The notes below the pieces were generated by a model. That model ran no database searches. It saw only the letters and a list, made by a program, of their open reading frames with translations, and had not been told where the DNA came from. This document shows positions 1 through 22,724 of a DNA stretch of 64,000 nt, piece after piece; the first letter of the stretch is position 1; each line of letters begins with the position of its first letter. This DNA is from Patescibacteria group bacterium. GTDB taxonomy: Bacteria > Patescibacteriota > Minisyncoccia > UBA6257 > GWB1-50-10. Both the position numbers and the translations under genes were made by a program. The DNA is taken from the NCBI GenBank assembly GCA_024239035.1, contig JANBVK010000001.1, forward strand, positions 171,010 through 235,009, read 5' to 3'.

Positions 1-326
1 CAATCTTCACAATAAATTGTGTAGGGAGATTTTGAATTGTACATTGAGAGCATAGATTTTTTACACAAATCACACTGACGTTTGTAAAGTGTCCGCTCAT
101 TCCGAAACACAAGTTTCCTTTTCATCCGGCAATCAGGGCACAAACCAGGGCTCAGCACTTTCATTTTTTCATAAAACGCGAAATCATCAGGTTCAATCAT
201 GAACTCCTGTTTACAATTCTGGCAGGTCGAAGACGCTGAGCCTTGTCGAAGTGTCGAAGACGCTGAGCCTTGTCGAAGTGTCGAAGACGCTGAGCCTTGT
301 CGAAGTGTTTTATCTTCTTGATTCAT
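1..326 (-). CDS. Cys-rich multi-zinc-ribbon paralog (array copy 1), N-terminal part only; the 3' end runs past the window start
   Basis: Reverse-complement translation from the ATG at 326 gives MNQEDKTLRQGSASSTLRQGSASSTLRQGSASSTCQNCKQEFMIEPDDFAFYEK...CPDCRMKRKLVFRNERTLYKRQCDLCKKS..., the same N-terminal architecture as the downstream copies. Confidence 0.7.
   Translation of the reverse strand, partial: MNQEDKTLRQGSASSTLRQGSASSTLRQGSASSTCQNCKQEFMIEPDDFAFYEKMKVLSPGLCPDCRMKRKLVFRNERTLYKRQCDLCKKSMLSMYNSKSPYTIYCED
226..306 (-). repeat. Three perfect in-frame tandem copies of a 27-bp unit (GTCGAAGACGCTGAGCCTTGTCGAAGT) encoding TLRQGSASS x3 in the N-terminus of copy 1
   Basis: Read directly from the sequence; the unit length is a multiple of 3 and the reading frame is preserved. 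Confidence 0.9.
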
Positions 327-2187: not shown

Positions 2188-3954
2188 CTATACTATCTCG
2201 CTCTGATAGCATTGCTCGCAATAAACGACCTCTTTCCTCTCTGGGGCGTAACTTGTTTCAAACTCATTGGGGCACCTCCCTTCCAGATGATGGATATGTT
2301 TCGCGGTATTTTCGCGCACTTTGTAATCACATACGCATTGTCTGTGCCAAAGTTTAAGAGGGTTTCGCATTGCAAATCGTTCCTTATAACGGCAGTTTTC
2401 GCATTTCCTAGGAAGCGCTATCTTTCTCATTCGCAGGAAATCAAGTTCTAGTTTCACTATTCGATACGCGCGTCCACAATCATTACAACCGATCACTTCT
2501 TTAATAATCGAGTCCTCTACGTCTTTTATATCCATAGGTAATTGCGATGACTGCATTGTAGGCGTATAAGGATACTTGTCTGGTTCTCGCCATGAATATC
2601 CCTTTCTTTCAGCCTGCTCTTTTGTAAGAGGCATATATTCCTGGGCAATTGTTTCGTTGTACGCATATAAGCTCAATCCAATTGGAAAAAATTCGCCGTA
2701 TTTATACACACATCCTGTTTTATCAGTATATGGCTTGTCATTCATATGCTCTTTAATTTTAGCTACGAGGGCACCATACTCTTCTTTAGAGTATTGCTTA
2801 TTAAAAATACAATATTCCTTTTTCCTCACACCCGAGCAGCCGAACATGTTGGTAGAATTAAGACACCAATACGCATAGTTACTATCCCTTGTTGCCTCAC
2901 CAAACATGGAAAAAAGAGTCTTATAGCATCCGAAGCCTCCAGCCATGAATTCGTACATTAATTCAGATGTCGCACAGCCAAACATGTCGTAAATCTCTTT
3001 AGCGCCAATTATCCTCGAACTATACTTAATGTTTTCCGATTCATACGCATCAAAAGTGAAATGGGCGTTTTTTGAATTTTCAATATTATCCCCTGTGCAA
3101 TTTATAGTTTTTGTGAAATTAGCGAACTTGTGAAGAGAAGATCTTATAAGCTTCTTGAATTCCTTTTTTAACTCTTGAAACTGGTTATGATTCCCCATGC
3201 TGATTTTATTTATCTCTTTTGAATATTCTTCTTTCGAGCACCGCCTATTTCTAAAAACATAACGTTGATTTCTCAAATTCGAGCTCATGAAACAATTTTG
3301 GCACCCCGAGCAGTCAAAAAGATATGCCGACTCGATGCATTCTCTTGAACGTAACGTAAAACTTGTCCTATTATTACGATCCCCGTCTATATTCTCGTAA
3401 ACCATTTCCGAACCTTCAATATTAAAACTATCAAAGCAGGTCTTGTCTTTGTCCATAAAGCGAGAGTAATATACGTCCTCACTTTCCAATACCGAGTACG
3501 AAAGGTATATGTTCTTGTTGTCAGCAATGAAATTTGCGTAATCTGAATTAATATTTGTATGATATTGTGCAATGGCAATTTGAGGAACTCTCACCAGCAG
3601 TTCTCTATATTGCTGAAAAAACGGCTTATCCCAATTGTATTCCACGCCATATTCAAGCGGATCCCACTTGTCGGAAAACCAACATTCACGGCAATAAACC
3701 TTATACGGTTTATCCGGCGAATACATTGAAATTATAGACTTACCACAAAGGTCACATGAGTCCTTATACAAAGTCCTCTCGTTTCTTACTGCCATACGTC
3801 TCTGTTGTCGGCAGTCCGGACAAAATGTCGGCGGTGGAACACTAATCTTCTCGTAAAACGAGAAGTCATCCGGTTCAATAGTGAACTGGTTTTTACAATT
3901 TTGACAGGTCGGAGATGCTGAGTCTTGTCGAAGTGTTTTGGTTTCGGTATTCAT
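2188..3954 (-). CDS. Cys-rich multi-zinc-ribbon paralog (copy 3); the core is Cys-depleted relative to its siblings
   Basis: The ORF track starts at 3975, but the conserved MNTETKTLRQDSASPTCQNC start is at 3954, in an ATGA overlap with the stop of copy 4. The termini match the family. The core has about half the Cys count of copy 2. Confidence 0.75.
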   Translation of the reverse strand: MNTETKTLRQDSASPTCQNCKNQFTIEPDDFSFYEKISVPPPTFCPDCRQQRRMAVRNERTLYKDSCDLCGKSIISMYSPDKPYKVYCRECWFSDKWDPLEYGVEYNWDKPFFQQYRELLVRVPQIAIAQYHTNINSDYANFIADNKNIYLSYSVLESEDVYYSRFMDKDKTCFDSFNIEGSEMVYENIDGDRNNRTSFTLRSRECIESAYLFDCSGCQNCFMSSNLRNQRYVFRNRRCSKEEYSKEINKISMGNHNQFQELKKEFKKLIRSSLHKFANFTKTINCTGDNIENSKNAHFTFDAYESENIKYSSRIIGAKEIYDMFGCATSELMYEFMAGGFGCYKTLFSMFGEATRDSNYAYWCLNSTNMFGCSGVRKKEYCIFNKQYSKEEYGALVAKIKEHMNDKPYTDKTGCVYKYGEFFPIGLSLYAYNETIAQEYMPLTKEQAERKGYSWREPDKYPYTPTMQSSQLPMDIKDVEDSIIKEVIGCNDCGRAYRIVKLELDFLRMRKIALPRKCENCRYKERFAMRNPLKLWHRQCVCDYKVRENTAKHIHHLEGRCPNEFETSYAPERKEVVYCEQCYQSEIV

Positions 3955-5651
3955 ATCACTTCCTTTTGATAACACTTCTCACAATAAACTATTTCCTTTT
4001 TCTCTGGAGCGTAACCCGTCTTAATTTCCTGACCGCATTTGGCGCATTTACGGTCCCACAGGCGCGGCGGATTGACACGACTCATCCGCTCCATGTGCCT
4101 GCAATCCGGACACTTCCTCGGTAAAGGGAATTCAAACCTGCGAAGCAGATCGAGTTCCGAACGCACTACGCGATATGCTTTTTTACAATCCATACATTCC
4201 AAAACTTCCTGAAGAATAGAATCCGTAACGTCATTGATGCTGTCGGGCATTTTTTCAGATAGTAATGTAATCTTATGCTCAGCCGGCGTTGGTTCGTGCC
4301 ACCGCCAGCCTTTCTCTAGTATCTGCTCCTTCGACAACGGGTAATACTGGTGCGCCGTGGTTTCATTATAATCGAATAAGCTTAGATCGTACGGAATAAA
4401 TTCTCCATATTTCCATACTCTGCCCTTGCTATCAACGTACGGACGCTCATTCATATCCTGAATGATTTTCCCTCTGAGCCTGCTAAAAGATTCTTTGTCG
4501 TACTGCTTGTTTAAAATACAATACCGTTTCTTCTTTACGCAGACACAGCCGAATACATTTGAAGAGGAAACCGCGAACATAGAATACTCATTCTCTAGAG
4601 CGGTATCCCACGTTCCAAAACAAAACCGTATGGTATCAGCCCCTTCTCCAACGGTGATAGAATCACACACACGCTGCACGCCATTCCCCCATTCACTGAG
4701 GTCATAAATATCCTTCGCCGGCTTCAAAGTCATAAACTGACAAAACTTCCCGTCTTCAACAAATCGAGTTTGGTACATATAGTGCGCATTCTTACACTCA
4801 TACACATAGTCTCCGGAAACGTTCACGTTATGAAACCCGTGTATAAATTTACGCGGAAATTTCTCCCAGAAAGTATGGGTTTTTTTCTTCTCTTCTATAA
4901 GAAAGGTATGTGAATCCAACTTTAATGCTTTTAATTTTTCCTCATACTCCTCTTTTGGGTACGGTTTATTGAATATATGATAGTTCTTGTTCCGCAGATT
5001 AACACAGCCAAAACAGTTGTTGCATCCAATGAGACTCTTCGAGAAATATACATCACTGCAACCACTGCAGTCTTCAGAAAAAAACGTCCGGTAACATTTC
5101 CGGCAGTTGATCACTTGATAACATAACTCTGACTCGTCAAGGATAAGCGCGTCCATGGAATCCTTGTCATAATTTACCGTCGTACCATAGAGAACGTTCT
5201 CGCAGTGGTCTGAGTTGAAAATAAGATAACAGTTTTTCGCATACCCTGCGTGGTTTACGTACTCACTATTTACGAGGGTGCTATATCCGGTGACCAAGCT
5301 CATATGCGGCACTTTTCTCTGAACTTCCTTAACCTGCTCAAAGAAATTCCGGCCGGAATCATACTCCATCGCATAATCATCAGAATCCCACTTATCAGAC
5401 CACCAGCACGGCTGGCAGTAAACCGTGTAGGGCTTATCCGGAGAAAAAATAGAAACCACGCTCTTACCGCATAAATCGCACTTACGTTTGTAAAAAACCC
5501 GTTCGTTGCGAAATATCAAACGCCGCTGAAACCTGCACTCCGGACAAAACGTCGGCGCTGGAACGTTCATTTTCTTATAAAAATCAAAATCTTCTGATTC
5601 AATCGTGAACTCCTTCTTACAATTTTGACATTTCTTAACTTCTTGATTCAT
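3951..5651 (-). CDS. Cys-rich multi-zinc-ribbon paralog (copy 4)
   Basis: 566-aa ORF beginning MNQEVKKCQNCKKEFTIESEDFDFYKKMNVPAPTFCPECR. It has the family core and C-terminal zinc ribbons. Confidence 0.8.
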   Translation of the reverse strand: MNQEVKKCQNCKKEFTIESEDFDFYKKMNVPAPTFCPECRFQRRLIFRNERVFYKRKCDLCGKSVVSIFSPDKPYTVYCQPCWWSDKWDSDDYAMEYDSGRNFFEQVKEVQRKVPHMSLVTGYSTLVNSEYVNHAGYAKNCYLIFNSDHCENVLYGTTVNYDKDSMDALILDESELCYQVINCRKCYRTFFSEDCSGCSDVYFSKSLIGCNNCFGCVNLRNKNYHIFNKPYPKEEYEEKLKALKLDSHTFLIEEKKKTHTFWEKFPRKFIHGFHNVNVSGDYVYECKNAHYMYQTRFVEDGKFCQFMTLKPAKDIYDLSEWGNGVQRVCDSITVGEGADTIRFCFGTWDTALENEYSMFAVSSSNVFGCVCVKKKRYCILNKQYDKESFSRLRGKIIQDMNERPYVDSKGRVWKYGEFIPYDLSLFDYNETTAHQYYPLSKEQILEKGWRWHEPTPAEHKITLLSEKMPDSINDVTDSILQEVLECMDCKKAYRVVRSELDLLRRFEFPLPRKCPDCRHMERMSRVNPPRLWDRKCAKCGQEIKTGYAPEKKEIVYCEKCYQKEVI

Positions 5652-5659
5652 GGTTCATG

Positions 5660-7450
5660 CTATACCACCTCTGCGTTGTAACACTGTTCACAGTACACAA
5701 TCTCTTTCCTCTCCGGTGCATATGATGTCTCAAACTCATTGGGACACCTACTTTTACCATGGAAGTGTTCTGTGGTGTTTTCATATCTTGTAGCTTGCCC
5801 TGAGCCTGTCGAAGGGTCACACACGCACTGGCGATGCCAGAGTTTTCGCGGCGGACGCAGGGCAATTTTATTAAGGTAGCGACAGTGGGGACATAATCGG
5901 GGAATTGGTATTTTTTCCCTGCGATATAAATCAAATTCAGAACGTATAATGTTGTAATTTCTCTTGCACTTAACACACATAAGAACTTCATTCACAATAG
6001 AGTCCTCTACATCTTCTATTTTGTCAGGGATATCGTTCGGCTTCACTGTTTCCTTACCAAACGTGCCGGGAACCTGATCTTCCCATCTCCATCCCCTTTT
6101 CATTACTTCTTCTTTGCTAAGCGGCATGTAGATTTGCCCCTGTGTTTCGTTATAACCAAACGGAGAAATCTTTGCAGGGAAAAATTCCCCAAACTCTCCC
6201 GTCTCACTCATGTGCGCAATAATTTTACGTTTCAGCTCCTTATACTCCTCTTCGTTATAACGCTTGTTAAAAATTGAATATTTCCCTTGTTTCACCCCAA
6301 CACAACCGAATAAATTCTCGCTATTGTGGCAACTATCACAGTACATAATATGAGAATCATCATAACTCAGATTCGTGAACAATACGTTATAATCTCTAAT
6401 TAGTGCATGGCATTCATAAATTAATTCACAATTAAACCCAAAATGATACGAATCCATGCACTCCTTGGAATCAATGGCGACAATCAAATATTTTGCATCC
6501 TCTATTCCACTCGCATCAAAAGAATGATGAATATTCTTCGAATTGAATATCATGTTACCGGTGGCATTTGCTGACTGCAAAATTACCGCGGCACGATGTA
6601 ATACGTTATCACGAATTATCGCAAGCCACTTCTCATAAAGCTTTACCCTGCTCTCATACGAGCTCAAATTAAATTCTTCTATTTTCTTCTGGTATTCCTC
6701 TTTAGTATAGGGCTTGTTCAAAATATGATACTGCTTATTGCGGAGATTGTATGAAAGAAAACAATTTGAACAACCGCGACAATCGTAGCAATAATAACAA
6801 TTCGTGCAACCCTCCAACAAAAAACCGTACTGACTTTGATAACATTTATATGAATTAATACATTCGTAAAGAAGTTCATTGCTCTCTTTTTCAATACGAT
6901 AACAATCAATGCAATCTCGCGCAGGAAATATATTAGTGGAATACATCACGTTTTCCGACCAGCCACAACCAAAGCACAAGTAACAATTCTTGTTATCCCA
7001 CGCGTGGTTTGTATATTCTGAATTAACGCTGTTTTTTGTAAGGAGCGCGATGCGAGGCACCTGTAACTGTAGCTCCTGCCACTGCCCAAAAAATGGGCGC
7101 GAGAAATCAAAATCCCGCCCGTATTCCAGCGCATCCCATTTATCACTCCACCAACAAGGCGGGCAATACACCTTAAACGGTTTGTTTAGAGAATATATTG
7201 TTACCGTGCTTTTGCCGCATAAATCACATCTGCGGCGATAGAGCACCCGCTCATTCCGCCACGCATAACGCCTCTGCTGCCGGCAGTCAGGGCACAAAGT
7301 CGGCGGCGGGACACTTATCTTCTCATAAAACGCGAAGTCATCCGGCTTGATGGTAAATTTTTGCTCACAGCTCCGGCATACCTGCACTGAGTTTTGTTGA
7401 AGTGTCGAAGATGCTGAGTCTTCTCGAAGTATTTTAATTTGATTCTCCAT
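5660..7450 (-). CDS. Cys-rich multi-zinc-ribbon paralog (copy 5) with a degenerate 2x N-terminal repeat and a C-terminal 36-nt insertion
   Basis: The likely start is MENQIKILREDSASSTLQQNSVQVC at 7450, in a TAATG overlap with the copy 6 stop. The C-terminus carries CDPSTGSGQATRY. Confidence 0.75.
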   Translation of the reverse strand: MENQIKILREDSASSTLQQNSVQVCRSCEQKFTIKPDDFAFYEKISVPPPTLCPDCRQQRRYAWRNERVLYRRRCDLCGKSTVTIYSLNKPFKVYCPPCWWSDKWDALEYGRDFDFSRPFFGQWQELQLQVPRIALLTKNSVNSEYTNHAWDNKNCYLCFGCGWSENVMYSTNIFPARDCIDCYRIEKESNELLYECINSYKCYQSQYGFLLEGCTNCYYCYDCRGCSNCFLSYNLRNKQYHILNKPYTKEEYQKKIEEFNLSSYESRVKLYEKWLAIIRDNVLHRAAVILQSANATGNMIFNSKNIHHSFDASGIEDAKYLIVAIDSKECMDSYHFGFNCELIYECHALIRDYNVLFTNLSYDDSHIMYCDSCHNSENLFGCVGVKQGKYSIFNKRYNEEEYKELKRKIIAHMSETGEFGEFFPAKISPFGYNETQGQIYMPLSKEEVMKRGWRWEDQVPGTFGKETVKPNDIPDKIEDVEDSIVNEVLMCVKCKRNYNIIRSEFDLYRREKIPIPRLCPHCRYLNKIALRPPRKLWHRQCVCDPSTGSGQATRYENTTEHFHGKSRCPNEFETSYAPERKEIVYCEQCYNAEVV

Positions 7451-9135
7451 TATCCTACTTCTTGAAGATAACATTTATCACAGAAGATTTTATGTTCTTT
7501 CTGTTCTTCCTGCGAATAAGAGGTTTGAAAACCAGCCCCACAGTTAGCACACGTTCCCGGCCAGAGCTGCCGTACATTTCTTGAGCCCATTCTTCTTTGA
7601 TGACGGCAATTAAAACATTCTCGCGGGAGGGGAAGCCCCACTTGTTTATAGAAATTAATTTCCGGTTGAATAAAACGGTAATTTCTGCCGCAGGCATCAC
7701 ACCTCAGAACTTGTTTTATTAAATCTCCCGAATATCCTTTCGGATTCGTCGGAAGTTCATCATGCGAAATAGTTTCCTGTCCGCTAGTTATAGGAATGTC
7801 TTCTTCCCAGCGAAATCCCTGCGCGAGCGCTTCTTTTTTCGCAAGCGGCATATATTCATTAACAATTGATTCATTGTAGGCGAACGCTGAAAGTTCCGGG
7901 GGGTGATACTCCCCCCACTCCCCCGTTTTCTTCATATACTCTATAATTTTCGACTTCAAAGATTCATATTCATCTTTGGAATACTGCTTGTTTAAAATGC
8001 AGTACTCCGCGCTTTTTAAGCCTACACAGCCAAAAATATTATGAGAGTTAAAACAATCTTCCGAATAATAGGCATCTGTAGAATTCACGCAATTCCGGGT
8101 AAAAAACTGTCGCATGCCTTGACCCGCGAGAACTTCGTAACACAGCTCCAAGTCGGGCGAAAAAGAAACATCATAGTCATCAACAGCTTTTCTGAGTGTG
8201 AAAACATATTTAGAATTCTCCCCGCTTTTTACGTCAAATGAATAATGGACGTTTTTAGAATTGTAAATATGGTTGCCGGAAACATCATTATTATGAGATC
8301 CAAAAAAGTATCTCTGCGGAAGTTTTTTCCTAAGACCCTGTTGTTTATTCAAAATTAGAGATATCGTCCTTGGGTCATGTAAAGGGTGTTCGGTCAGAAA
8401 CTTTTCGTATCCCTCCTTCCCAACATTTTCATTAAAAATATGGTAGGACTTCTGCTTCAAACCAACACAGCCTATGCATTGCGTACATCCTCGGCAGTCA
8501 TACAAGCCCACACTATCAGCGCAGTCCTCACACTCTTGTGAATAAAGAAGTCGATATGAACCCAAACAATCCACGCATTCATAACAGAGTTCCCCTTTAA
8601 ACATATAAAGATTGTCAAAACAATCCTTGGAATTCCACACTATATGCCCGTATGCACAATCCTCATCATCAACACAACCAAATACCAGATAACAATTCTT
8701 ACTCTCAAATGTAAGATTCGAATAGACGCAGTTCTCACTCCTTGTGTTCATAACCGCATAATGCGGGACCACTTTTTGCAACTCGGCAAATTGCAGAGAG
8801 AAAGGACGACTAAAATTAAAATCCCGCCCGTACTCCTTCGCGTCCCAGTCATCAGCCCACCATTCCTCATGGCTCCACACCGGAAACGGAGCCTTTTCGG
8901 AATACATTGATATCACTGATTTCCCAGACTTGTCGGATTTTCGCTTGTAGAGCGTCTTAAAATTTCTAAATAATATTCTCCTTCGCTGCCGACATTGGGG
9001 ACAATTCTTCGGCGGCGGAACGCTTATCTTCTCATAAAACGCGAAGTCGTCCGGTTCAATCACGAAAGACGTCCTACAGCTCTGACAAGTCGAAGACACT
9101 GAGTCTTGCCGAAGTGCTTTAGTTTCCTTATTCAT
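7450..9135 (-). CDS. Cys-rich multi-zinc-ribbon paralog (copy 6)
   Basis: 561-aa ORF beginning MNKETKALRQDSVSSTCQSC. The family architecture is present, with a divergent C-terminus CANCGAGFQTSYSQEEQKEHKIFCDKCYLQEV. Confidence 0.8.
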   Translation of the reverse strand: MNKETKALRQDSVSSTCQSCRTSFVIEPDDFAFYEKISVPPPKNCPQCRQRRRILFRNFKTLYKRKSDKSGKSVISMYSEKAPFPVWSHEEWWADDWDAKEYGRDFNFSRPFSLQFAELQKVVPHYAVMNTRSENCVYSNLTFESKNCYLVFGCVDDEDCAYGHIVWNSKDCFDNLYMFKGELCYECVDCLGSYRLLYSQECEDCADSVGLYDCRGCTQCIGCVGLKQKSYHIFNENVGKEGYEKFLTEHPLHDPRTISLILNKQQGLRKKLPQRYFFGSHNNDVSGNHIYNSKNVHYSFDVKSGENSKYVFTLRKAVDDYDVSFSPDLELCYEVLAGQGMRQFFTRNCVNSTDAYYSEDCFNSHNIFGCVGLKSAEYCILNKQYSKDEYESLKSKIIEYMKKTGEWGEYHPPELSAFAYNESIVNEYMPLAKKEALAQGFRWEEDIPITSGQETISHDELPTNPKGYSGDLIKQVLRCDACGRNYRFIQPEINFYKQVGLPLPRECFNCRHQRRMGSRNVRQLWPGTCANCGAGFQTSYSQEEQKEHKIFCDKCYLQEVG

Positions 9136-9152
9136 ATTCTTGGTCGCGGAGT

Positions 9153-10628
9153 TTAGAAACCTCTCAAAAATTGCACAAGAAGCGCTACCGGTGCACCGGC
9201 TGCACCTTTTGCCAAATAATCACCTTCAATTGCAGTCATCCGCGGCGCAATATCAAGATGAACCCAATTATGACCTTTGATAAACTGCCAGAGAAATGCC
9301 GCACTCGTACTAACGCCTCCGGTGCGATTCTTGCCGGTTGTAGTATTTGCTACATCCCCGAACGTCCCTTTTATGTCCTCCTCATACTCTTCCCAAAGCG
9401 GCATAGGCCAGACAAAATCACCGGTGACCTCTCCGGCTATCCGCAATTTCTCACTCACCCTATCGTCGGTAGCAAAGAGAGCCGACGCGCGCTGGCCAAG
9501 AGCAACTACCGCTGAGCCTGTAAGCGTCGCAACGTCAATAACAAGCCGCGGCTTGTACCGCTTCGCATACTCCAGCGCATCGGCAAGTATCACCCTCCCC
9601 TCGGCATCGGTGTTTAAAACTTCAATTGTCTTGCCGGACATGGTGCGGAGAACGTCACCCGGGCGATAACTTGAGCCCGAAGGCATATTCTCGACCGCCG
9701 GGACAAGACCAATAATGTTTCTCTTTGACTTAAGCTTCGCAAGTGCAGCGAGCGTATGAATCACCGCCGCTCCACCCGACATATCCATATGCATCTCATA
9801 AATTCCCTCAGTCGGCTTCAAGTTCAACCCGCCGGTGTCAAACGTCACTCCCTTACCCACTAAAACCACGGGTTTCTCACTGCGCCTGCCTTTTAGGTAC
9901 TCCATAACGATAAAGCGAGGACGCTCGTCTGACCCGCGCGACACACCGAGCACACCCCCCATTTTCAGTTTGCGGATCGCCCTCTCATCTAAAACTTTTA
10001 CTTTAAACCCTGCACTGCGGCCGGCCCGCCGCGCGGCATCAGCAAGTTTTGATGGAGTCATATCCCCACCGGGAGTATTTGAGAGAATTCTTGTGTGATT
10101 AATCTCTTCTCCTACAACTTTCCCGCGTCTAAGTGCTGCTTTAATCTTCACGCTCCTCCCGGATGAAATAATTTGGACCGCATTTACAAAAAACCAACCC
10201 TCTTTCGGTTTAGTCTTATACTTAACAAACTCAAAATTAGCGATCTCAATCTGTGTCGCAAGCATCTCAGCCACGGACTCACGTAAAATACCCGATTCTT
10301 TAACCAGAAAATCATCTAAATACAGGGCAAGATTACCAATCTTCTCGCGCCGGGCGAGTGTCACCACCTGCCGCATTGTACGCAGCGCCCTTCGGTGATT
10401 AAATCCTTCTGGGACGCTAATCACTAAAACCCGCCTCCCGCGGGACAACAAAAGCACATGACTCTCATTCCCTTCCTGCTTAGCGTTACTTTTAAGAAAG
10501 CGTAGGTTCACTTGGTCCTCTTTTGAGAGCGTTTTAAAAAACGGATGCAATTCAATTTTTTGCTTATCTCTTAAAACAAAAACAGGAGCGGTCTGCCGTG
10601 AAAATTCTTTGGTGTGTATTATTTTCAT
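9153..10628 (-). CDS. pepA: Leucyl aminopeptidase, M17 family
   Basis: 491 aa carrying the M17 signature NTDAEGRVILADALEYA plus VGKGVTFDTGG and the surrounding LAP catalytic-domain conservation. The gene is visibly more GC-rich than the flanking paralogs. Confidence 0.9.
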   Translation of the reverse strand: MKIIHTKEFSRQTAPVFVLRDKQKIELHPFFKTLSKEDQVNLRFLKSNAKQEGNESHVLLLSRGRRVLVISVPEGFNHRRALRTMRQVVTLARREKIGNLALYLDDFLVKESGILRESVAEMLATQIEIANFEFVKYKTKPKEGWFFVNAVQIISSGRSVKIKAALRRGKVVGEEINHTRILSNTPGGDMTPSKLADAARRAGRSAGFKVKVLDERAIRKLKMGGVLGVSRGSDERPRFIVMEYLKGRRSEKPVVLVGKGVTFDTGGLNLKPTEGIYEMHMDMSGGAAVIHTLAALAKLKSKRNIIGLVPAVENMPSGSSYRPGDVLRTMSGKTIEVLNTDAEGRVILADALEYAKRYKPRLVIDVATLTGSAVVALGQRASALFATDDRVSEKLRIAGEVTGDFVWPMPLWEEYEEDIKGTFGDVANTTTGKNRTGGVSTSAAFLWQFIKGHNWVHLDIAPRMTAIEGDYLAKGAAGAPVALLVQFLRGF

Positions 10629-10633
10629 AAATC

Positions 10634-12328
10634 TTAGATAACTTCAGCTTGATAACACTTCTTGCATAATATGTATTCTACTTCCTCTTTAGGGTAATTG
10701 GTCTCAAACTCACTGCCGCACTTGGAGCACACTCGTTTAAAGACTCTTAAATTCTTCACCCATTGCTTGAACTTTTCATCAATGCGGCAGAAGGGACATT
10801 CTCTGGGCAGCGGCAGGTTCATCTTCCGTAAAAATTCAAGCTCCATCTGAATAATCTTAAATCCTTTACCGCACTTTTTGCAACTAATCACCTCTTTCAA
10901 AATATCATCGGGGGTATCCCGGATATGATCAGGTAGCTTGTCATGAGTTATTGTTATCACATACTGCCTCGACTCCAGTTCTCTCCATCGGTAACCTTCT
11001 TTCTCCGTCTGTTCACGAGAAAGTGGGAAAAAGTCATTCGCAACTGTCTCATTGTACGCAAATGGACTAAACTCAATAGGAAAAAACTCACCGTATTTAT
11101 AAACTCTTCCTTTCTTATCTGTGTATGGCATCTCTTCCATGTGCGCTACAATCCTTTCTCTTAACTTTTCAAATTCCTCCTTGGAGTATCGCTTGTTTAA
11201 AATGCAGTAATCACCTTTATTTATCGACACACAACCAAAATGATTTGATCCTGCAAGAGAAAGTTTAGAATATTCAGTGTCGTACAAACCAAGGCCCGCC
11301 TCTTGAGAAAATCTTACATTTGAAGCGTCTTCCCCAACCACACAGCATTCATATGCGAGGGTAAGATTATGTCCCCAGCTTGAAATATCGTAACAGTCTT
11401 TCATCGGCGGCTCTGTGATAGAAATAAATTTACAATCTTCGGCGCCAACTACTTCAAAGCACTCTTTACAGTTTTTTGATTGAAAAACATGGCTGCCGGT
11501 AGAGTTAATCGCAAACTCGTCCATTGTTGGTTTTGGCGGAAACATTTTCCAATGCTCCTCGGCGCGTTTCTGTAACTCTTTATATGTTTTGTAAGAACCC
11601 AAGTCCCACTTTCCGATCTCCTTGAAATACTCTTCTTTGGTATACGGTTTATTGAAAATGTGGTATTTCCTGCCTCGCAGGTTAGCTGATGCAAAACAGT
11701 TCTGGCAATTCATAGAATCTTTCAAGAACACGCAGTCAAGCGACTCTGTTACCTGGCTTCTCGTTCCAACACATCGGTTATTCTTATACGAATGCATCGA
11801 ATCATAACATAGCTCAGACGAATTAATTAAAGAACAGTCAAGTACTGATCTGTTGTGAGTTACTACCACGCCATAAGCGCAATCCTCATCGACATCAGCA
11901 TGAAAAAGAAGATAGCAGTTTTTAAGATGGCCGGCATGGTTGTTGTGGGGTGAGGTTGCAAGAGTCTCCAAACCAAGCGAGAGCCCCAGCATTGGCACTT
12001 CGTGCCAGAGTTCATTGAATTGTTCAAAAAACGGCCGCGAGAAATCATAATCACGCCCATATTCAAATGCGTCCCAATTATCCGACCACCAACAACGAGG
12101 ACAATACACGCGGTACGGGCTCTCTGGCGCATACATCGAAATCACATCTTTCCTACAAAGATCACAAGGGCGCTTATAAAGATTAATTAAATTAAAAAAC
12201 GCAAGCCGCCGTTGCAGACGGCATTTTGGACAAAACGTCGGCGCCGGAACGTTAATCTTTTGGTAAAAACTCTGGTCTTCGGTTGTGACCTCAAACTGTG
12301 TTTTACAATTTTGGCATTGTTTGGTCAT
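10634..12328 (-). CDS. Cys-rich multi-zinc-ribbon paralog (copy 7)
   Basis: 564-aa ORF beginning MTKQCQNCKTQFEVTTEDQSFYQKINVPAPTFCPKCR, with the family core and C-terminus. Confidence 0.8.
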   Translation of the reverse strand: MTKQCQNCKTQFEVTTEDQSFYQKINVPAPTFCPKCRLQRRLAFFNLINLYKRPCDLCRKDVISMYAPESPYRVYCPRCWWSDNWDAFEYGRDYDFSRPFFEQFNELWHEVPMLGLSLGLETLATSPHNNHAGHLKNCYLLFHADVDEDCAYGVVVTHNRSVLDCSLINSSELCYDSMHSYKNNRCVGTRSQVTESLDCVFLKDSMNCQNCFASANLRGRKYHIFNKPYTKEEYFKEIGKWDLGSYKTYKELQKRAEEHWKMFPPKPTMDEFAINSTGSHVFQSKNCKECFEVVGAEDCKFISITEPPMKDCYDISSWGHNLTLAYECCVVGEDASNVRFSQEAGLGLYDTEYSKLSLAGSNHFGCVSINKGDYCILNKRYSKEEFEKLRERIVAHMEEMPYTDKKGRVYKYGEFFPIEFSPFAYNETVANDFFPLSREQTEKEGYRWRELESRQYVITITHDKLPDHIRDTPDDILKEVISCKKCGKGFKIIQMELEFLRKMNLPLPRECPFCRIDEKFKQWVKNLRVFKRVCSKCGSEFETNYPKEEVEYILCKKCYQAEVI

Positions 12329-12447
12329 ACGATTTTTTTGCTGTGCCCGTCCGTAGCCTTGGGCGAAGGAGGGTAAAAATCAAAATCCTCCGGTTCGATC
12401 TGAAAAACTGATTTACAATTCTGACAATTTCTAGTTTCGCTATTCAT
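12325..12447 (-). pseudogene. Orphan N-terminal fragment of the paralog family (40 codons), out of frame with copy 7; its stop overlaps the copy 7 ATG
   Basis: Reverse-complement translation from the ATG at 12447 gives MNSETRNCQNCKSVFQIEPEDFDFYPPSPKATDGHSKKIV*. The first 25 aa match the family N-terminal zinc ribbon and the remainder is junk. It is below the ORF-track length cutoff. Confidence 0.45.
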
Positions 12448-12474
12448 AGTCTTAGTCTGAGGTGGTATGACATG

Positions 12475-14244
12475 TTATACCACCTCCGTGTTATAGCAGG
12501 TCTCACAATACACAATCTCCTTCCTCTCCGGTGCGTATGATGTCTCAAACTCATTGGGACACCTGCCCTCTGGGTGATGAGAATGTTTTGTGGTGTTTTT
12601 ATATCTTGTAGCTTGCCCTGAGCCTGTCGAAGGGTCACAAAGGCACTGGCGGTGCCATAACCTATTCGGTCCGCGTGCATTGAATCGCCGCGCGTGCCGG
12701 CAATCGGGACAAAGACGGGGCAAAGGAATGTGCAGATTTCGGTAGAACGAAAACTCGTTTGATATAATCTTATAGTTTTTCTTGCAGTTAAGACAGACAA
12801 AAATCTCGCGCTTCACGTCCAGGTCGTGAACATCGTAAATAGAGTCAGGAACTTTATCCCACGAAATGGTTTCTTTACCAAAAGTACCTCTAGGATAATC
12901 TTCCCATTTGAATCCTTGCTTCAACGCTTCTTCTTTCAATAAAGGGAATTGTTCCTGAACGCATGCCTCATTGTATCCAAAAGTACTAAGCGGCGGCGGG
13001 AAAAATTCTCCATAAACGCCCTCTTTTTTCATATCTTCTATAATGGTTGTCTTTAGTTTCTCGAAAGTCCCTTTGTCATATTCTTTATTTAAAATGCAGT
13101 ACTGCCTCTTCCGCAAACCCGCTGAACCAAAGCAGTGCTGAGAATCATAACAGTACATGCAATATGTTAAAAAGCTGTTTCCCCAACATAAGCTGCAACA
13201 AATACATTGAGAGCTATTGAGTCCGGTATTTGTGGAATTATAGACCAATTCCGCTCCCCGACCAGCGGTGTCACAATCAACACAATCTTTGGCGTTTCGC
13301 CACACATGCACGCTGTATGCGCAATCTTCGGCGTCGTATGCGTGAAAACAGGAACGACAGTTTTTTACATTCTTGATATAATTTCCCGTTGTATTAGTTG
13401 CATTCACGATTTCAGCAAATTTTTGAGGTTGCGTAGCTGCAAATTTTTGAAATTCCTTGCGAAGTTTCTCCACACCGCTATACGTATCTAACTTTGCTGA
13501 TTCCAAAAATTCCCCGTATTCTTTCTTTGAAAGCGGTTTATTAAAAACATGATATTGCTTATTGCGAAGGTTTACGCACCCTATACAATTTGATGAACCA
13601 CGACAATCAAGGAGAAAATAACTCTCGTTTGAATCATGACAACCCTTGCTGTAGAAAAGTTTGTACGAATTATAACAATCGTCGGACTCATAAGAGAGCT
13701 CAGTTTGGTGAGCAAATGAAACGTCAACGCAACTTTTACAGACTTGTATCCAATAACAGTGGGTGCAGTCTTCGTTGTTGGAAGATTCAACAATCATGTA
13801 GCAATTCTTGTTATCCGCAGAGATATTAATGTATTCCGAATTAACGCTTCGCACATGAATGAGGGCTACTTTAGGAACGACTTTCCACAATTCATGAAAC
13901 TGCTCAAAAAAGGGCTTTCCTGAAATATAATTGCGCCCATAATCTCTTGGGTCCCAATCGTCCGAGAACCAGCAGTCATGACACCACACGGTGTATGGCT
14001 TGTTAGGATTATACATTGAGACAATATCTTTCTTACAACGATCACATGGACGTTTATAAAACACTCTCTCGTTCCGGAACGCTAAGCGCCTCTGCGCACG
14101 GCACAAGGGGCACATCTGCGGTACTAGAGTCCCTATTTTCTTATAAAACGAAAGATCATCCGGTTGGATGATGAATTGACTTCTACAGTTTTGGCAGGCC
14201 TGCGCTGAGCTTTGTCGAAGTATTTTATTTTCCGCCTTTTTCAT
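12475..14244 (-). CDS. Cys-rich multi-zinc-ribbon paralog (copy 8) with the C-terminal 36-nt insertion
   Basis: 589-aa ORF beginning MKKAENKILRQSSAQACQNC. The C-terminus carries CDPSTGSGQATRYKNTTKH...NEFETSYAPERKEIVYCETCY. Confidence 0.8.
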   Translation of the reverse strand: MKKAENKILRQSSAQACQNCRSQFIIQPDDLSFYKKIGTLVPQMCPLCRAQRRLAFRNERVFYKRPCDRCKKDIVSMYNPNKPYTVWCHDCWFSDDWDPRDYGRNYISGKPFFEQFHELWKVVPKVALIHVRSVNSEYINISADNKNCYMIVESSNNEDCTHCYWIQVCKSCVDVSFAHQTELSYESDDCYNSYKLFYSKGCHDSNESYFLLDCRGSSNCIGCVNLRNKQYHVFNKPLSKKEYGEFLESAKLDTYSGVEKLRKEFQKFAATQPQKFAEIVNATNTTGNYIKNVKNCRSCFHAYDAEDCAYSVHVWRNAKDCVDCDTAGRGAELVYNSTNTGLNSSQCICCSLCWGNSFLTYCMYCYDSQHCFGSAGLRKRQYCILNKEYDKGTFEKLKTTIIEDMKKEGVYGEFFPPPLSTFGYNEACVQEQFPLLKEEALKQGFKWEDYPRGTFGKETISWDKVPDSIYDVHDLDVKREIFVCLNCKKNYKIISNEFSFYRNLHIPLPRLCPDCRHARRFNARGPNRLWHRQCLCDPSTGSGQATRYKNTTKHSHHPEGRCPNEFETSYAPERKEIVYCETCYNTEVV

Positions 14245-14248
14245 AAAC

Positions 14249-15901
14249 TTATGATATCTGAGTTTGATAACAGTCTGTACACATAACTTTCCGGTAACCC
14301 CACTTCCGAGGATAGAAGTGATTAACTTTCCTGGAACAAAAGATGCACGATCCCCGGTAAGACTTTAACACAGTGAGCGGCTTGAACCGTTCACGTGTTC
14401 GCCAGTCAGGATGATGACGTGGAAGAGGAATTCCGTGCTCCTTATAAAAAGCGAGTTCGTGGCGAGCTATATTAAAGCGCCAGCCGGTTTCAGGACAGAT
14501 AATTGCCTGCGCAGTTATATCATCTCCTACGTTATCAATTCTATCCGGCAGGTCATCCCCGCTTATTCCCTCATAAGCTGTTTCCCGAACATCATCCCAT
14601 CGCCCTCCAATTTTCTCAATATCCTCTTTAGTTTTAGGGAAATACCATTGGGCAAGAGTTAAATTATATCCTGAATACGCAAACGAATATGGAAGAAACA
14701 ATCCCCATTCACCTCTCTGCTTCATCTGTTCTTTAATTTTTGATGTGAGTTTTGCATACTCATCTTCGGTATACTGCTTGTTTAAAATACAATGCTTTTT
14801 CTTTCTTAATCCCACACAGCCAAAACAGTTCTCACAATCCTCACAATAATCTAAATATGCCGAGTGGCGACAATTCGAGCACCACACGTTTACAATTGCA
14901 TCATAATAGGTAATCCCTATACTCATCGCACTCTTTTCTGCCCTGCCAATACCGACAGAATCAATCACATCCTTGTTTTCTAATCCCCTGAATACATATC
15001 TGCAATTCTCTGATTTTTCTAAAAAGTAACACGAGAAACAATCTTTACACTCATTGATAAAGTTTCCGATGGAATTAGTAACTTTAACGTTAAAATTTTC
15101 TCTATGTACGGCCTCTCTCGCCGTAATATCGCTGAACTCTTTCTTGAGTTCTTGAACCTTCTTATATGAATGAGTGTCAAACTTCTTAAGTTCTTCAAAA
15201 TATTTCTCCTTGGAATACGGTTTGTTGAGAATATGATATTGCTTATTTCTCAAATTCCAGCACATAAAACAGTTCTGGACATTGCGACAGTCATAAAGGA
15301 ACATACTCTCCATACAATTTCTAGCATCAAAGGCGTATTTCACCCTGTAGCACTTAAAACAGTAGAGACAATCATAAGACAACTCTGAGTCGAAACAGTA
15401 GGCAAGATCAATTGAATTTTTGCACCCAAAAGCGCGATAGCTATAGCTCAAATATTCACTGCCTATCATTGCTCGACACAAATAGCAGTCCCTACATTCC
15501 CATATGTCGTCACACCAATCACAATTTACGTTCTTTACCCCCTGCTGATGGGGGTGTGGAACACTGGAACGCAACTCCCCAAATTGTTCAAGGAAAGAAC
15601 GTGAAAAATCATATTCTTTTCCATAATCCGTCGGATCCCAGGCATCAGACACCCATTCATTCCGGGCATAAATAGGAAATCCAGCACTCTCCGGTAGTAC
15701 CGTAATTATTGTCTTCCCGCTCAAATCAGACTTTGTTTTTCGAAACTTTCCGAATGTCCAGAAAGCTAACTGATGTCTCCAGCGACACCTCCGGCACTCC
15801 TTTGAGGGAGGAGTGCCTATTTTCTTATACAGGTTAAAATCCTCCGGTCTGATAGTGAACCGCCGCTCACAACTTTTACAAGTTTTAATCTCAGCTATCA
15901 T
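14249..15901 (-). CDS. Cys-rich multi-zinc-ribbon paralog (copy 9, divergent)
   Basis: 550-aa ORF beginning MIAEIKTCKSCERRFTIRPEDFNLYKKIGTPPSKECRRCR. It has the conserved NCFMCWNLRNKQYHILNKPYSKEKY and CFGCVGLRKKKHCILNKQYTEDEY internal repeats. Its start shares an ATGA overlap with the copy 10 stop. Confidence 0.75.
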   Translation of the reverse strand: MIAEIKTCKSCERRFTIRPEDFNLYKKIGTPPSKECRRCRWRHQLAFWTFGKFRKTKSDLSGKTIITVLPESAGFPIYARNEWVSDAWDPTDYGKEYDFSRSFLEQFGELRSSVPHPHQQGVKNVNCDWCDDIWECRDCYLCRAMIGSEYLSYSYRAFGCKNSIDLAYCFDSELSYDCLYCFKCYRVKYAFDARNCMESMFLYDCRNVQNCFMCWNLRNKQYHILNKPYSKEKYFEELKKFDTHSYKKVQELKKEFSDITAREAVHRENFNVKVTNSIGNFINECKDCFSCYFLEKSENCRYVFRGLENKDVIDSVGIGRAEKSAMSIGITYYDAIVNVWCSNCRHSAYLDYCEDCENCFGCVGLRKKKHCILNKQYTEDEYAKLTSKIKEQMKQRGEWGLFLPYSFAYSGYNLTLAQWYFPKTKEDIEKIGGRWDDVRETAYEGISGDDLPDRIDNVGDDITAQAIICPETGWRFNIARHELAFYKEHGIPLPRHHPDWRTRERFKPLTVLKSYRGSCIFCSRKVNHFYPRKWGYRKVMCTDCYQTQIS

Positions 15902-17694
15902 ATTACTTCACTTTGATAACATTGTTCGCAGTATACAATCTCTCTCCTTTCTGGAGCATAACTTGTCTCAAATTCATTGGGACACCTGCCTTCCAGGTGA
16001 TGATCATGCTTCGTGATATTCTTATATCTTGTAGCTTGCCCTGAGCCTGTCGAAGGGTCGCATACGCACCGGCGATGATACAACTTACTCTTATTTCTCT
16101 GGGCAACCCTCGCATTGTGCCTACAGTCCACACACGTCCGGGGCGCAGAAATCTTTTCTACACGCAGGAAATCAAGTTCCGGTTTAATGAGCCGATACGC
16201 CCTTTTACAATCACTGCACCGAATAATCTCCTTTAAAATACTATCCTGAATATCGTTTATGGAGTCGGGTATATCTTCCGATTTCATCGTAATCTCATAC
16301 TCCCGCGATGACGGTTCCTGCCATTTATATCCTTCTTCCTCTGCCTGTTCTTTCGTCAACGGAAAATGCTCGTTGGCAATGGTTTGATTGTAACCAAAAG
16401 GAGAAAGTTCTATGGGGAAAAACTCACCGTATTTATAGATCCTTCCTTTTTTATCAATATATGGCTTTTCACCCATTTGCTTCTTAATTCTCTCTACCAG
16501 CATTTCATACTCCTCTTTAGAATATTCTTTGTTTAAAATACAATGTTGCTTTTTACGCAAACCAACGCAACCGAATAAATTTGATGCCGAATGACAATAT
16601 ATACAATATTCCATATCCCGAATGTCCGTCCATGACTCGACGCAGAACTTCACGTTAAACGTCCCCATACCGGTAACAGCATTCTCATACCCCAATTGAT
16701 TGTTCTGACCCCAAACCGTCACATCATAGCAGTCTTTATTGGGTGGAAACTGGTAATATTGAACATATTTTAAGTTTTCACCTTCTCTAACTAAGTAACT
16801 TTGGCGGACATTTTTAGAGTTGGTAACGTACTCACCGCTCACGTTAGTGTTTTTAATCCCTTGTAGATACTTATTGGGAAACTTCTTCCAAAACTCACTT
16901 ACACCCCCTTTCACCGCAGTAAGGCCGTTCCACGAATGCAAATTCATCCCCTTAATCTTTCTTTCATATTCCTCCTTGGAATAAGGAGTATTATAAATAT
17001 GATACTTTTTATTGCGGAGGTTAACACACCCAAAACAATCACTGCAACCTTTGCAATTCTTTGAAAACCACACGCCGTGACAGTCCTCGCACTGTGAAGA
17101 AAAGTGCGTTTGATAACAATTCTCCAGCCAGAACGAGTCATAGCAACGCTCACACCTACCGATATGTGAATTGTCAAAACAGTTCTTACAATTATCCACT
17201 CCGTTACCATAGGCACAATCTTCGTCCTTATTTGAGTTAAACATCAAATAGCAGTTTCTCAGATAGCCGGCATTGGCGCAATATTCGCTGTTTACCATAT
17301 TAAGCACTGAAAGATTAAATCTTGGTACCACTTTAGCAAGTTCGAAAAATTGTTCAAAAAAGGTTCGTGAAAAATCGTAATCCCTTCCGTAGGAGGTTGC
17401 ATCCCAATCATCAGCCCACCACTCTTTCTCTTCATATAAAGTAACTTCTGATTCCGGAGGATAGAGAGCTAAAATTTCCTTCCCGGATTTTGCGCTCTTT
17501 GTTCTAAAGAGTTTCCGCTCGTTGCGAGACGCAATCCTTCTCTGAAATCTACACTCCGGACAAAACGTCGGCGGCGGGACGCTGATTTTCTTGTAGAAAT
17601 CAAGGTCCTCCGGTTCGATGGTGAACTCTGTTTTACAGTTCTGGCAGGTCGAAGACACTGAGTCTTGTCGAAGTGTTTTGGTTTCAGTATTCAT
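15898..17694 (-). CDS. Cys-rich multi-zinc-ribbon paralog (copy 10) with the C-terminal 36-nt insertion
   Basis: The likely start is MNTETKTLRQDSVSSTCQNC at 17694, in an ATGA overlap with the copy 11 stop. The C-terminus carries CDPSTGSGQATRYKNITKH. Confidence 0.75.
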   Translation of the reverse strand: MNTETKTLRQDSVSSTCQNCKTEFTIEPEDLDFYKKISVPPPTFCPECRFQRRIASRNERKLFRTKSAKSGKEILALYPPESEVTLYEEKEWWADDWDATSYGRDYDFSRTFFEQFFELAKVVPRFNLSVLNMVNSEYCANAGYLRNCYLMFNSNKDEDCAYGNGVDNCKNCFDNSHIGRCERCYDSFWLENCYQTHFSSQCEDCHGVWFSKNCKGCSDCFGCVNLRNKKYHIYNTPYSKEEYERKIKGMNLHSWNGLTAVKGGVSEFWKKFPNKYLQGIKNTNVSGEYVTNSKNVRQSYLVREGENLKYVQYYQFPPNKDCYDVTVWGQNNQLGYENAVTGMGTFNVKFCVESWTDIRDMEYCIYCHSASNLFGCVGLRKKQHCILNKEYSKEEYEMLVERIKKQMGEKPYIDKKGRIYKYGEFFPIELSPFGYNQTIANEHFPLTKEQAEEEGYKWQEPSSREYEITMKSEDIPDSINDIQDSILKEIIRCSDCKRAYRLIKPELDFLRVEKISAPRTCVDCRHNARVAQRNKSKLYHRRCVCDPSTGSGQATRYKNITKHDHHLEGRCPNEFETSYAPERREIVYCEQCYQSEVI

Positions 17695-21124: not shown

Positions 21125-21144
21125 ATGACCCTACTTTGAATCAT

Positions 21145-21176
21145 AAAGAATACTAGATTTAAATCTAGTATTCTTT
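21145..21176. promoter_or_regulatory. Perfect 32-bp palindrome (AAAGAATACTAGATTT|AAATCTAGTATTCTTT) 21 nt upstream of the array start codon. Candidate operator and/or terminator of the upstream ATPase gene
   Basis: The 16/16 inverted repeat is read from the sequence. On the minus-strand sense it overlaps a weak -35/-10 pair (TTTAAA ... TATGAT), followed by AGGG and then ATG. Confidence 0.45.
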
Positions 21177-21208
21177 AAATTTCAGGAAGGTAAGAACCCT
21201 AAACCCTA

Positions 21209-22702: not shown

Positions 22703-22724
22703 GCGATGTTTTAATTTTTAATTT

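Follow-up and report, generated by a model that had tools for sequence, protein, structure and literature searches.

A tandem array of Cys-rich genes in a bacterium of the Patescibacteria group (assembly GCA_024239035.1, contig JANBVK010000001.1) raises the question why its copies are so much more alike at both ends than in the middle. The array was analysed in a stretch of 64,000 nucleotides (positions 171,010 to 235,009 of the forward strand), referred to here as the window, which contains 11 full copies (c2–c12), one partial copy (c1), and one stub open reading frame (ORF). The c3 protein exactly matches KJI72_01000 of a metagenome-assembled genome of Patescibacteria, encoded on a scaffold of 729,382 bp. 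Beyond the window, this scaffold holds the rest of c1 and one extra copy (c0); family genes of 538 aa and 579 aa downstream of c2 (locus L001) were both matched by the family hidden Markov model. The array comprises 13 tandem paralogues of a protein of about 580 aa. All family genes are located on the minus strand, encode Cys-rich proteins of 550–605 aa, and can be aligned end to end. The initial annotation had placed and numbered copies 3, 5, 8, and 10 correctly and had offered two explanations for the pattern: concerted evolution or gene conversion of the ends with diversifying cores, or relaxed constraint in copy 3. Our analysis makes it likely that the copies are instead ancient, conserved paralogues with old, divergent cores, that the c3 type is itself conserved, and that recent exchange is restricted to the extreme gene ends.

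The protein alignment was divided into N-terminal (columns 1–130), core (130–440), and C-terminal (560–639) parts. Among c3, c5, c8, and c10, identity was 46–65% in the N-terminal columns, 32–37% in the core, and 67–74% in the C-terminal columns, confirming the mosaic conservation described before; the DNA of paralogous cores was about 47% identical. Comparison with other genomes reversed what this pattern had seemed to imply. In database searches, c3 had over 6,000 relatives and c10 over 7,000. Orthologues from Giovannoni-, Sung-, Curtiss-, Jorgensen-, Lipton-, Staskawicz-, Uhr-, and Nomurabacteria were 55–66% identical to c10 and 55–61% to c3, whereas paralogues from the same genome reached at most 50%. 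In the core region of a 90-sequence alignment, all of the approximately 39 orthologues of c3 or c10 were closer than any in-genome paralogue, the latter ranking 40th to 41st. The same held for three other arrays, one from a Liptonbacteria metagenome-assembled genome (MAG; L003) and two further ones (L005, L006): c1, c3, c4, c6, c7, c8, and c10 had partners there with core identities of 51–69% (for example, c4 with L006_6127, 62%; c6 with L003_8265, 64%; c7 with L006_11796, 51%; c8 with L003_2767, 69%), compared to at most 47% to paralogues in their own genome.

The core of c10 and that of its orthologue in a close relative (L127) differed by 0.022 nonsynonymous (dN) and 0.65 synonymous (dS) substitutions per site. 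The resulting dN/dS of 0.033 was the lowest along the gene. For c3, the closest relative was 61% identical and synonymous sites were saturated. Within the c10-type subfamily, identity was 70% in the N-terminal finger, 52% in the second ribbon/linker, 54% in the core, 55% in the mid domain, 55% in the C-terminal finger, and 56% in the terminal ribbon. Between c10-type and c3-type proteins the corresponding values were 67, 38, 29, 52, 47, and 57%. The divergence profile is thus nearly flat inside a subfamily and mosaic only between subfamilies. The c3-type core was about 50% identical among its 18 closest members, compared to 54% for the c10 type. The divergence of the cores dates from the origin of the paralogues, which apparently preceded the split of the sampled lineages of Patescibacteria, and each core has since been maintained by strong purifying selection inside its own orthologue group. 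A mosaic of this kind is ordinary for ancient modular paralogues and, on its own, is not evidence for diversifying selection. As each copy represents an ancient paralogue conserved in its own right, the copies are probably non-redundant, each with a distinct role.

Copy 3 stands out by its Cys content. Across the 11 full copies, core Cys numbers were 12 (c3), 16, 17, 19, 19, 20, 20, 21, 23, 23, and 25, with 23 in c2, and only one core Cys column was invariant among them. The contrast between c3 and c2 drawn by the initial annotation, including the c3 peptide that it quoted, is therefore real. The further statement that copy 3 has lost half of its scaffold holds for the smaller number of core Cys; c3, however, is the low end of a continuum, and c2 has itself lost a complete CxxC...CxxC ribbon, so that c3 has eight N-terminal Cys and c2 only four (30 and 37 Cys in total, respectively). 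The low count is shared by other genomes: 40 c3-type homologues had 9–17 core Cys (median 11), and 39 c10-type homologues had 12–23 (median 21). Positions 147, 171, 192, 201, 222, and 353 (c2 numbering) were 90–100% Cys in the c10 type and occupied by other fixed residues in the c3 type. Replacements in the c3 type were V/I at 147 and 159, N at 192 (30/40), S at 201, S at 222 (38/40), and G at 340 and 353. Conversely, the ribbon positions C66, C69, C87, and C90 were Cys in 100% of c3-type and 0% of c10-type sequences. Copy 3 has an intact ORF and keeps every invariant and near-invariant Cys of the family, so that, for the conserved Cys set, an equivalent set of metal ligands is retained.

Structures of c2 and c3 were predicted by AlphaFold2 from the same 90-sequence alignment, with a mean predicted local distance difference test score (pLDDT) of 88.5 and a predicted template modelling score of 0.89 for c2, and 89.8 and 0.88, respectively, for c3. 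At aligned positions the two models agreed in 88% of the secondary structure, and 131 of 136 helix positions were common to both. Module 1 of the solenoid described below scored lower in c3 than in c2 (pLDDT 65–75 versus 77–81), whereas module 2 scored higher in c3. From the alignments and models, the Cys-poor core of c3 is an old, conserved subfamily trait with an unchanged predicted fold, in which solenoid Cys occurring at every third residue would have been swapped for V/I, S, N, or G. This set of replacements suggests inward-facing or turn positions.

According to the models, the protein consists, in order, of a disordered leader, an N-terminal treble clef, a second ribbon, two homologous beta-solenoid modules built of hexads, an alpha/beta domain, a second treble clef, and a terminal zinc ribbon. 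The solenoids appear as two runs of two-residue strands with a 6-residue period and helices between them. Their caps are homologous (...C.NCFGC.NLRNK.Y.I.N..YSKEEY and ...NLFGCVGLR.K.YCILNKQYSKEEY). The internal duplication is also visible in the DNA: each gene contains two occurrences of the repeat families D2, D3, and D6, separated by about 450 nt. In module 1 of the 90 sequences, 864 of 868 Cys were located at the third or sixth position of a hexad, sites at which V, I, L, S, N, A, and G are the alternatives to Cys. We infer that most core Cys occupy predicted repeating inward-facing or turn positions of a solenoid rather than serving as CxxC ligands of zinc ribbons; annotators should accordingly not take the Cys-rich core for a string of zinc ribbons. 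One cluster, C-x8-C-x2-C-x2-C (c2 positions 204, 213, 216, and 219), is conserved at 84–100% and could be a true metal site; a Pfam scan of seven copies matched no Fe-S family.

The ligands of the flanking fingers are strongly conserved. Across the 90 sequences, C16, C19, C44, and C47 of the N-terminal finger were invariant, as were C492 of the second finger and C542, C563, C581, and C584 of the terminal ribbon; C495, C520, and C523 of the second finger were at least 90% conserved. Thus, the set of four ligands in two CxxC pairs that defines zf_Tbcl and zf_Tbcl_2 is conserved in the family. Subfamilies differ in the second N-terminal ribbon, whose four Cys are retained in some and missing from others that have lost them. 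In c2, c6, c9, and c10 all four are gone (c2 positions 66–90, window ~1866–1940). The Cys-less version is still predicted as an identical pair of beta-hairpins with a pLDDT of about 96, and it appears, from the models, to be a former zinc ribbon that no longer depends on metal.

At the gene ends, constraint and exchange have to be separated. The N-terminal finger was 67.5% identical between subfamilies and about 70% within them. The terminal motif CPNEFETSYAP.R.EIVYCE.CY was present in orthologues of many lineages. Over their last ~30 residues (RCPNEFETSYAPERKEIVYCEQCY), c3, c5, c8, and c10 hardly differ; since these residues are equally conserved in orthologues from other genomes, this near-identity is not specific to the genome studied here. 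These comparisons argue that end similarity is mostly the product of family-wide purifying selection, with finger and ribbon ends that retain identical constrained residues in every subfamily. They also qualify the description of the termini as almost identical, which applies to the last ~30 residues of all four copies and to the N-terminus of c3 and c10 (and c6). Over residues 1–60, c3 and c10 were 79% identical, but c5 reached only 65% and the best in-genome match of c8 only 54%.

On this background, several short tracts at the ends depart from what family-wide selection would leave. Over the first 48 nt, which encode the leader (TLRQDS.SST), c10 was 92% identical to c3 and 88% to c6, with synonymous sites scrambled downstream; the leader is missing from almost all orthologues elsewhere. 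A 36-nt block (GACCCTTCGACAGGCTCAGGGCAAGCTACAAGATAT) was 100% identical in c5, c8, and c10, whose cores are about 47% identical, and is not present in the close c10 orthologue, which also lacks the leader and has CDYKI at the site of CDPSTGSGQATR in c10. At residue-identical C-terminal sites of c5 and c8, 40 of 50 codons were identical as well, compared to a baseline of about 45%. When c10 was aligned to its close orthologue, nucleotide identity was 69% in codons 1–51, 90.8% in codons 52–540, and 79% from codon 541 to the end (Fisher p = 6e-11 and 4e-5). The DNA of the c10 N-terminal finger was as near to the paralogues c4 (85% over 20 codons), c8, and c3 as to this orthologue. In L005, paralogues were far more alike at their ends than expected (N-terminal finger 81% versus 60%; terminal ribbon 65% versus 51%), so that end exchange seems to recur within the family. 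The differences at the extreme ends are observed. Reshuffling between paralogues, in tracts ranging from tens of bases to about 150 nt, would explain them, together with an in-frame motif of about 24 nt that would have been repeatedly inserted or spread there.

Several observations weigh against this interpretation. Averaged over all copies, identity within the genome did not generally exceed that between genomes (N-terminal finger 49% versus 54%; terminal ribbon 48.8% versus 46.8%), so that exchange in this array is confined to a few copies and short tracts. The N-terminal replacement may lie either in c10 or in its orthologue, and the N-terminal dS of 1.2 is derived from only about 14 synonymous differences. 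A GENECONV-like permutation test, which ignores rate differences between sites, gave only fragments of 17–97 nt. Neither c8 nor c10 could be located in an independent assembly, leaving the 36-nt insert in these copies unsupported by a second assembly. With respect to the core, the c10-type Cys are 90–100% conserved within their own subfamily and may, beyond packing, be ligands or redox sites specific to it. The solenoid fold is a prediction, with a pLDDT of 65–81 in module 1 and matches in the PDB that were all non-significant (E ≥ 2e-3, TM ≤ 0.22).

Differential purifying selection alone, with no exchange and with the identical tracts being ancestral or coincidental, accounts well for the family-wide terminal motifs and for the lack of an overall within-genome excess, and it agrees with synonymous codon identity at the ends, which is near baseline for most pairs. 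We nevertheless consider it improbable. It would have to explain why c10 falls from 90.8% in the middle to 69% and 79% at its ends against a close orthologue, why its N-terminal finger is equally near to c4, c8, and c3, how a leader and a 36-nt insert came to be shared by paralogues and missing from orthologues, and why end similarity within L005 is so strong. Gene conversion of the ends, as had been proposed, thus stands for short, recent, motif-associated tracts and not as a general process in this genome.

The leader and the insert might also be assembly artefacts of a repeat-rich region, given that the genome is a MAG, that c8 and c10 could not be recovered from an independent assembly, and that nearly all carriers of the motif are MAGs. 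This is very unlikely. Paralogue DNA that is only about 47% identical makes a collapse of repeats implausible, c2, c3 including its leader, and c4 are reproduced in an independent Logan assembly (L002), and none of the inserts disrupts the reading frame. Protein P0201 from another genome has a similar insert (CDPSASSGQATSY) at the equivalent site, and the motif is also found in MAG records described as 'chromosome' assemblies.

Hypervariable cores under diversifying selection between homogenised ends, that is, a contingency or antigenic-variation repertoire, would fit the paralogue profile, the tracts of identical DNA, and a copy number that differs from that of a close relative, but is scarcely credible given that each orthologue group conserves its core at 51–69% across lineages, that the dN/dS of the c10 core is the lowest of any gene region, that every copy is full-length within one operon with start/stop overlaps, and that zinc fingers without a signal peptide fit the cytoplasm. 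Neisseria pilE/pilS and Borrelia vlsE are multigene families with conserved flanks and variable cassettes that are kept similar by gene conversion. The array resembles them in its tandem arrangement, in ends that are more alike than the cores, in short end exchanges, and in differences in copy number. It differs in that its cores are ancient, constrained (dN/dS 0.033), and orthologous across lineages, in that it has no silent or truncated cassettes except one 40-aa stub, and in that the proteins look cytoplasmic.

Decay or relaxed constraint of copy 3, with loss of a metal-binding scaffold, is hardly tenable either: the lowest core Cys count (12 versus 16–25) and the lower pLDDT of module 1 are what would be expected, yet 40 homologues from other genomes share the low count and the column-specific replacements, the c3-type core is conserved almost as well as that of the c10 type, the overall model is confident and folds like that of c2 (pLDDT around 90 and 88), and the ORF is intact with all invariant Cys and the ribbon that c2 lost. 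For the same reasons a pseudogene was rejected. The interpretation that we prefer thus remains that of ancient paralogues, each conserved in its core.

Comparison with known folds placed the core closest to left-handed beta-helix proteins (LpxA, LpxD, GlmU, and gamma-carbonic anhydrase). Common to both are the predicted two-residue strands with a strict 6-residue period and, in the c3 type, repeat positions with V/I and S/N/G. The top ~30 Foldseek matches of c2 and c3 in the PDB all belonged to this class, none being significant (best E = 2e-3). In contrast, Pfam Hexapep did not match any of seven copies at E ≤ 1. Every third position of the repeats carries a special residue, giving the signature x-x-[C/V/I/L]-x-x-[S/C/N/G], which differs from the [LIV]-[GAED]-x2-[STAV]-x of Hexapep. 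The solenoid of the array proteins moreover occurs in duplicate, with four or five zinc-finger modules on its flanks, and no catalytic residues of acyltransferases or carbonic anhydrases were identified. Insect antifreeze proteins (Pfam AFP, PF02420) are likewise tight beta-solenoids with regular Cys, and one paralogue had a precomputed AFP match designated 'faint'. However, our own Pfam scan of seven copies gave no AFP match. The repeat of antifreeze proteins is 12 residues long and its Cys form disulfide bonds, whereas Cys of the array proteins are spaced by 3 within a 6-residue period, and a disulfide-bonded extracellular setting is unlikely for zinc-finger proteins.

The N-terminal and C-terminal CxxC...CxxC modules matched the Pfam models zf_Tbcl (PF13451) and zf_Tbcl_2 (PF23477), both designated 'probable treble clef', with scores below the cutoff in most copies. 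The terminal ribbon of c4 scored 29.5 bits against zf_Tbcl_2, above the cutoff of 27 bits; c3, c5, and c8 scored 16–21 bits (cutoffs 24/27), and c2, c10, and c11 gave no match. These entries cover a module of about 40 aa and do not describe the ~450 aa between the fingers. No match to the core was found in Pfam, NCBIfam, PADLOC, or PHROGs, and none to the alpha/beta domain in Pfam, NCBIfam, or the PDB; a profile search of PDB sequences with the 90-sequence alignment returned nothing at E ≤ 1. NCBIfam gave a sub-threshold BsaP match to c3 residues 17–71, in the N-terminal finger/ribbon region, and PHROGs gave a weak match to phrog_15341, a family of unknown function. Literature searches on the family, the Pfam names, and the motif-encoded peptides found nothing relevant. 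The family is very large, with at least 2,376 clusters at 50% identity (E ≤ 1e-30), and its named homologues are almost all Patescibacteria; outside the zinc-finger modules it is not covered by any entry of Pfam, NCBIfam, or the PDB. Genomes of Patescibacteria are very small, and many of the proteins conserved in the group have no known function. An array that takes up about 3% of a 729-kb genome is a large investment for a small genome. We consider the family itself worth following up, together with what it costs a minimal genome, the turnover of its ends, and the cross-phylum motif described below.

The genomic context offers some indications of function. A VirD4-like ATPase adjoins the array in all five genomes examined (the one studied here and those of L003, L005, L006, and L127); its NCBIfam matches were to TraD/VirD4-like families and all below cutoff. 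CutA1 and M17 peptidase recur in or beside the arrays, and an embedded M17 gene also occurs in L003 and L006. The presence of zinc fingers and the lack of a signal peptide make the proteins look cytoplasmic. A common docking mechanism for the copies is plausible because of the shared finger ends and the conserved neighbourhood of the VirD4-like ATPase. With low confidence, we propose that the shared ends may be docking sites through which all paralogues bind one partner, either nucleic acid or the adjacent ATPase, and that paralogue-specific solenoid surfaces would supply distinct specificities. Metallothionein-like metal storage, considered with regard to the CutA1, P-type ATPase, and M17 peptidase genes nearby, was judged less likely because each paralogue is separately conserved. 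A role in defence or an origin from phages was rejected, as PADLOC gave no matches for the family and viral contigs in IMG/VR were nearly devoid of it (one marginal match at a contig end).

The ATPase and the upstream gene for a 468-aa protein (window 21209–24652) match different parts of phrog_5156, a phage family of 824 positions, indicating that the two correspond to one fused protein in some phages. The L127 orthologue of the 468-aa protein is annotated as DUF8128. A longer second VirD4/TrwB-like ATPase paralogue was found in L005 (5119–7092) and L006 (13680–15563), each with a C-terminal CxxC...CxxC zinc ribbon. In L005 this ribbon (KLYDVKCSNCGKDTKVIFEPVAGRPVYCKSC) is a homologue of the one that terminates proteins of the Cys-rich family; the L006 ribbon is similar and has a precomputed zf_Tbcl_2 match. 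When L127 (2667–6488) was compared to window positions 14249–22702, the c10 orthologue directly followed the VirD4-like ATPase, and c11 and c12 were absent, indicating that array copy number varies between close relatives. The 232-nt spacer in L127 holds an inverted repeat (TCCTCAATTTGTCCAC...GTGGACAAATTGAGGA).

The 36-nt insert contains CCTTCGACAGGCTCAGGGCAAGC, and a 23-nt motif, CCTTCGACARGCTCAGGRCARGC, is located in frame at 5787–5815 (c5), 12605–12633 (c8), and 16028–16056 (c10). A scan for CCTTCGACARGCTCAGGRCARGC in 596 Gb, with one genome per species, yielded at least 120 loci (L007–L126), compared to a chance expectation of about 0.1 matches by our own estimate. The matches listed were from Acidobacteriota, Chloroflexota, Deltaproteobacteria, Planctomycetota, Alpha- and Betaproteobacteria, Saccharibacteria, Chlamydiota, Bacteroidota, and Actinomycetota, and nearly all of their carriers were MAGs. 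Flanking sequences were unrelated between loci, and some copies formed 24-nt tandem runs or inverted pairs. The N-terminal leaders of this array and of L005 are variants of the motif in other reading frames. The 27-nt unit of the tandem repeat in c1 (226–308) is a motif variant as well, and its triple occurrence suggests very recent slippage. No Rfam family matched the motif, and no paper on it was found. In being a short GC-rich motif that occurs singly, in tandem, or as inverted pairs, in coding and non-coding DNA and between unrelated flanks, it resembles repetitive extragenic palindromic (REP) elements. REP elements are usually lineage-specific. The motif differs by the identical 23-nt sequence in many phyla, by its position in frame inside conserved genes, and by the lack of an Rfam match.

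It is possible, if rather doubtful, that the gene ends are remodelled by an undescribed process, in which the motif CCTTCGACA(A/G)GCTCAGG(A/G)CA(A/G)GC is inserted or copied in frame at preferred sites and then spread between paralogues by templated exchange of very short tracts, the proteins perhaps being a docking repertoire of the VirD4-like ATPase. Preferred landing sites would be just ahead of the first finger Cys and inside the loop of the terminal ribbon. The motif may also mark deletion junctions, for example at the stub ORF (12325–12447), where the family N-finger sequence breaks off into DNA resembling the 23-nt motif; the stub may be the remnant of a deleted paralogue. If this is true, a cross-phylum mini-element has a hotspot in the zinc-finger ends of the family and could be studied in this array as a natural system. 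The 24-nt motif merits a study of its own.

Table 1. Coordinates of array genes, protein parts, and neighbouring genes in the 64,000-nt window.
Feature	Position	Strand	Remarks
c1, 5' part only	1..325	-	runs off left window end; sequence read
Tandem repeat in c1 leader	226..308	-	perfect 27-nt x 3.1, encodes (STLRQGSAS)x3; Tandem Repeats Finder 100% matches; motif matches at 236-250, 263-277, 290-304
c2, 590 aa	363..2135	-	Cys-rich core (23 Cys); second N-terminal ribbon without Cys
c3, 588 aa	2188..3954	-	Cys-poor core (12 Cys); all family-invariant Cys kept; second N-terminal 4-Cys ribbon intact
c3 leader (MNTETKTLRQDSASPT)	3907..3954	-	predicted disordered; not in c3 orthologues of other genomes
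c3 N-terminal treble-clef zinc finger	3793..3906	-	C17, C20, C45, C48; sub-threshold Pfam zf_Tbcl; invariant Cys columns; pLDDT >90
c3 second zinc ribbon (CDLC...CREC)	3679..3768	-	columns at c2 positions 66, 69, 87, 90
c3 predicted beta-solenoid module 1	3244..3576	-	hexad repeats; cap C-x8-C-x2-C-x2-C / NLRNK..Y..N..SKEEY; DSSP strand period 6
c3 predicted beta-solenoid module 2	2800..3135	-	internal duplicate of module 1; cap FGC..LR.K.YCI.NKQYSKEEY; pLDDT 90-99
c3 alpha/beta domain	2503..2799	-	PY.D..G..YKYGEFFP...S.FAYNET.A..Y.PL.KE....GY.WR; best conserved block besides fingers
c3 C-terminal treble-clef finger and terminal ribbon	2191..2493	-	finger C490, C493, C518, C521; ribbon C540, C542, H-x-HH loop, C561, C579, C582; invariant Cys
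c4	3951..5651	-	stop overlaps c3 start (ATGA)
c5	5660..7450	-	doubled degenerate leader and 36-nt C-terminal insert
36-nt insert of c5 (GACCCTTCGACAGGCTCAGGGCAAGCTACAAGATAT, encodes DPSTGSGQATRY)	5783..5818	-	DNA repeat family D14; identical in c8, c10
c6	7450..9135	-	leader DNA 88% identical to c10 leader
M17 leucyl aminopeptidase inside array	9153..10628	-	Pfam Peptidase_M17, E = 6e-113
c7	10634..12328	-	full copy
Stub ORF, 40 aa	12325..12447	-	between c8 and c7; first 24 aa are a family N-finger fragment (MNSETRNCQNCKSVFQIEPEDFDFY), then 16 unrelated aa; DNA repeat family D10
c8	12475..14244	-	36-nt insert at 12601-12636
c9, divergent	14249..15901	-	two C-terminal treble-clef Cys replaced (H, W)
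c10	15898..17694	-	leader 17647-17694; 36-nt insert 16024-16059; neither in close orthologue
c11, divergent, long N-terminal extension	17691..19436	-	full copy
c12, first array gene	19433..21124	-	full copy
Soluble VirD4/TraG/TrwB-like (DUF87) ATPase	21209..22702	-	directly upstream of array; Pfam DUF87, T4SS-DNA_transf, TrwB_AAD_bind

Successive genes of the array are joined by ATGA start/stop overlaps at 3951–3954, 15898–15901, 17691–17694, and 19433–19436, and the start of c7 is overlapped in the same way by the stop of the stub. These overlaps suggest translational coupling in one operon. A scan of the whole window against Rfam gave no family, tRNA included, at the gathering score. Nearly all ORFs of at least 120 aa in the window are encoded by the minus strand, and negative GC skew extends over its full length.

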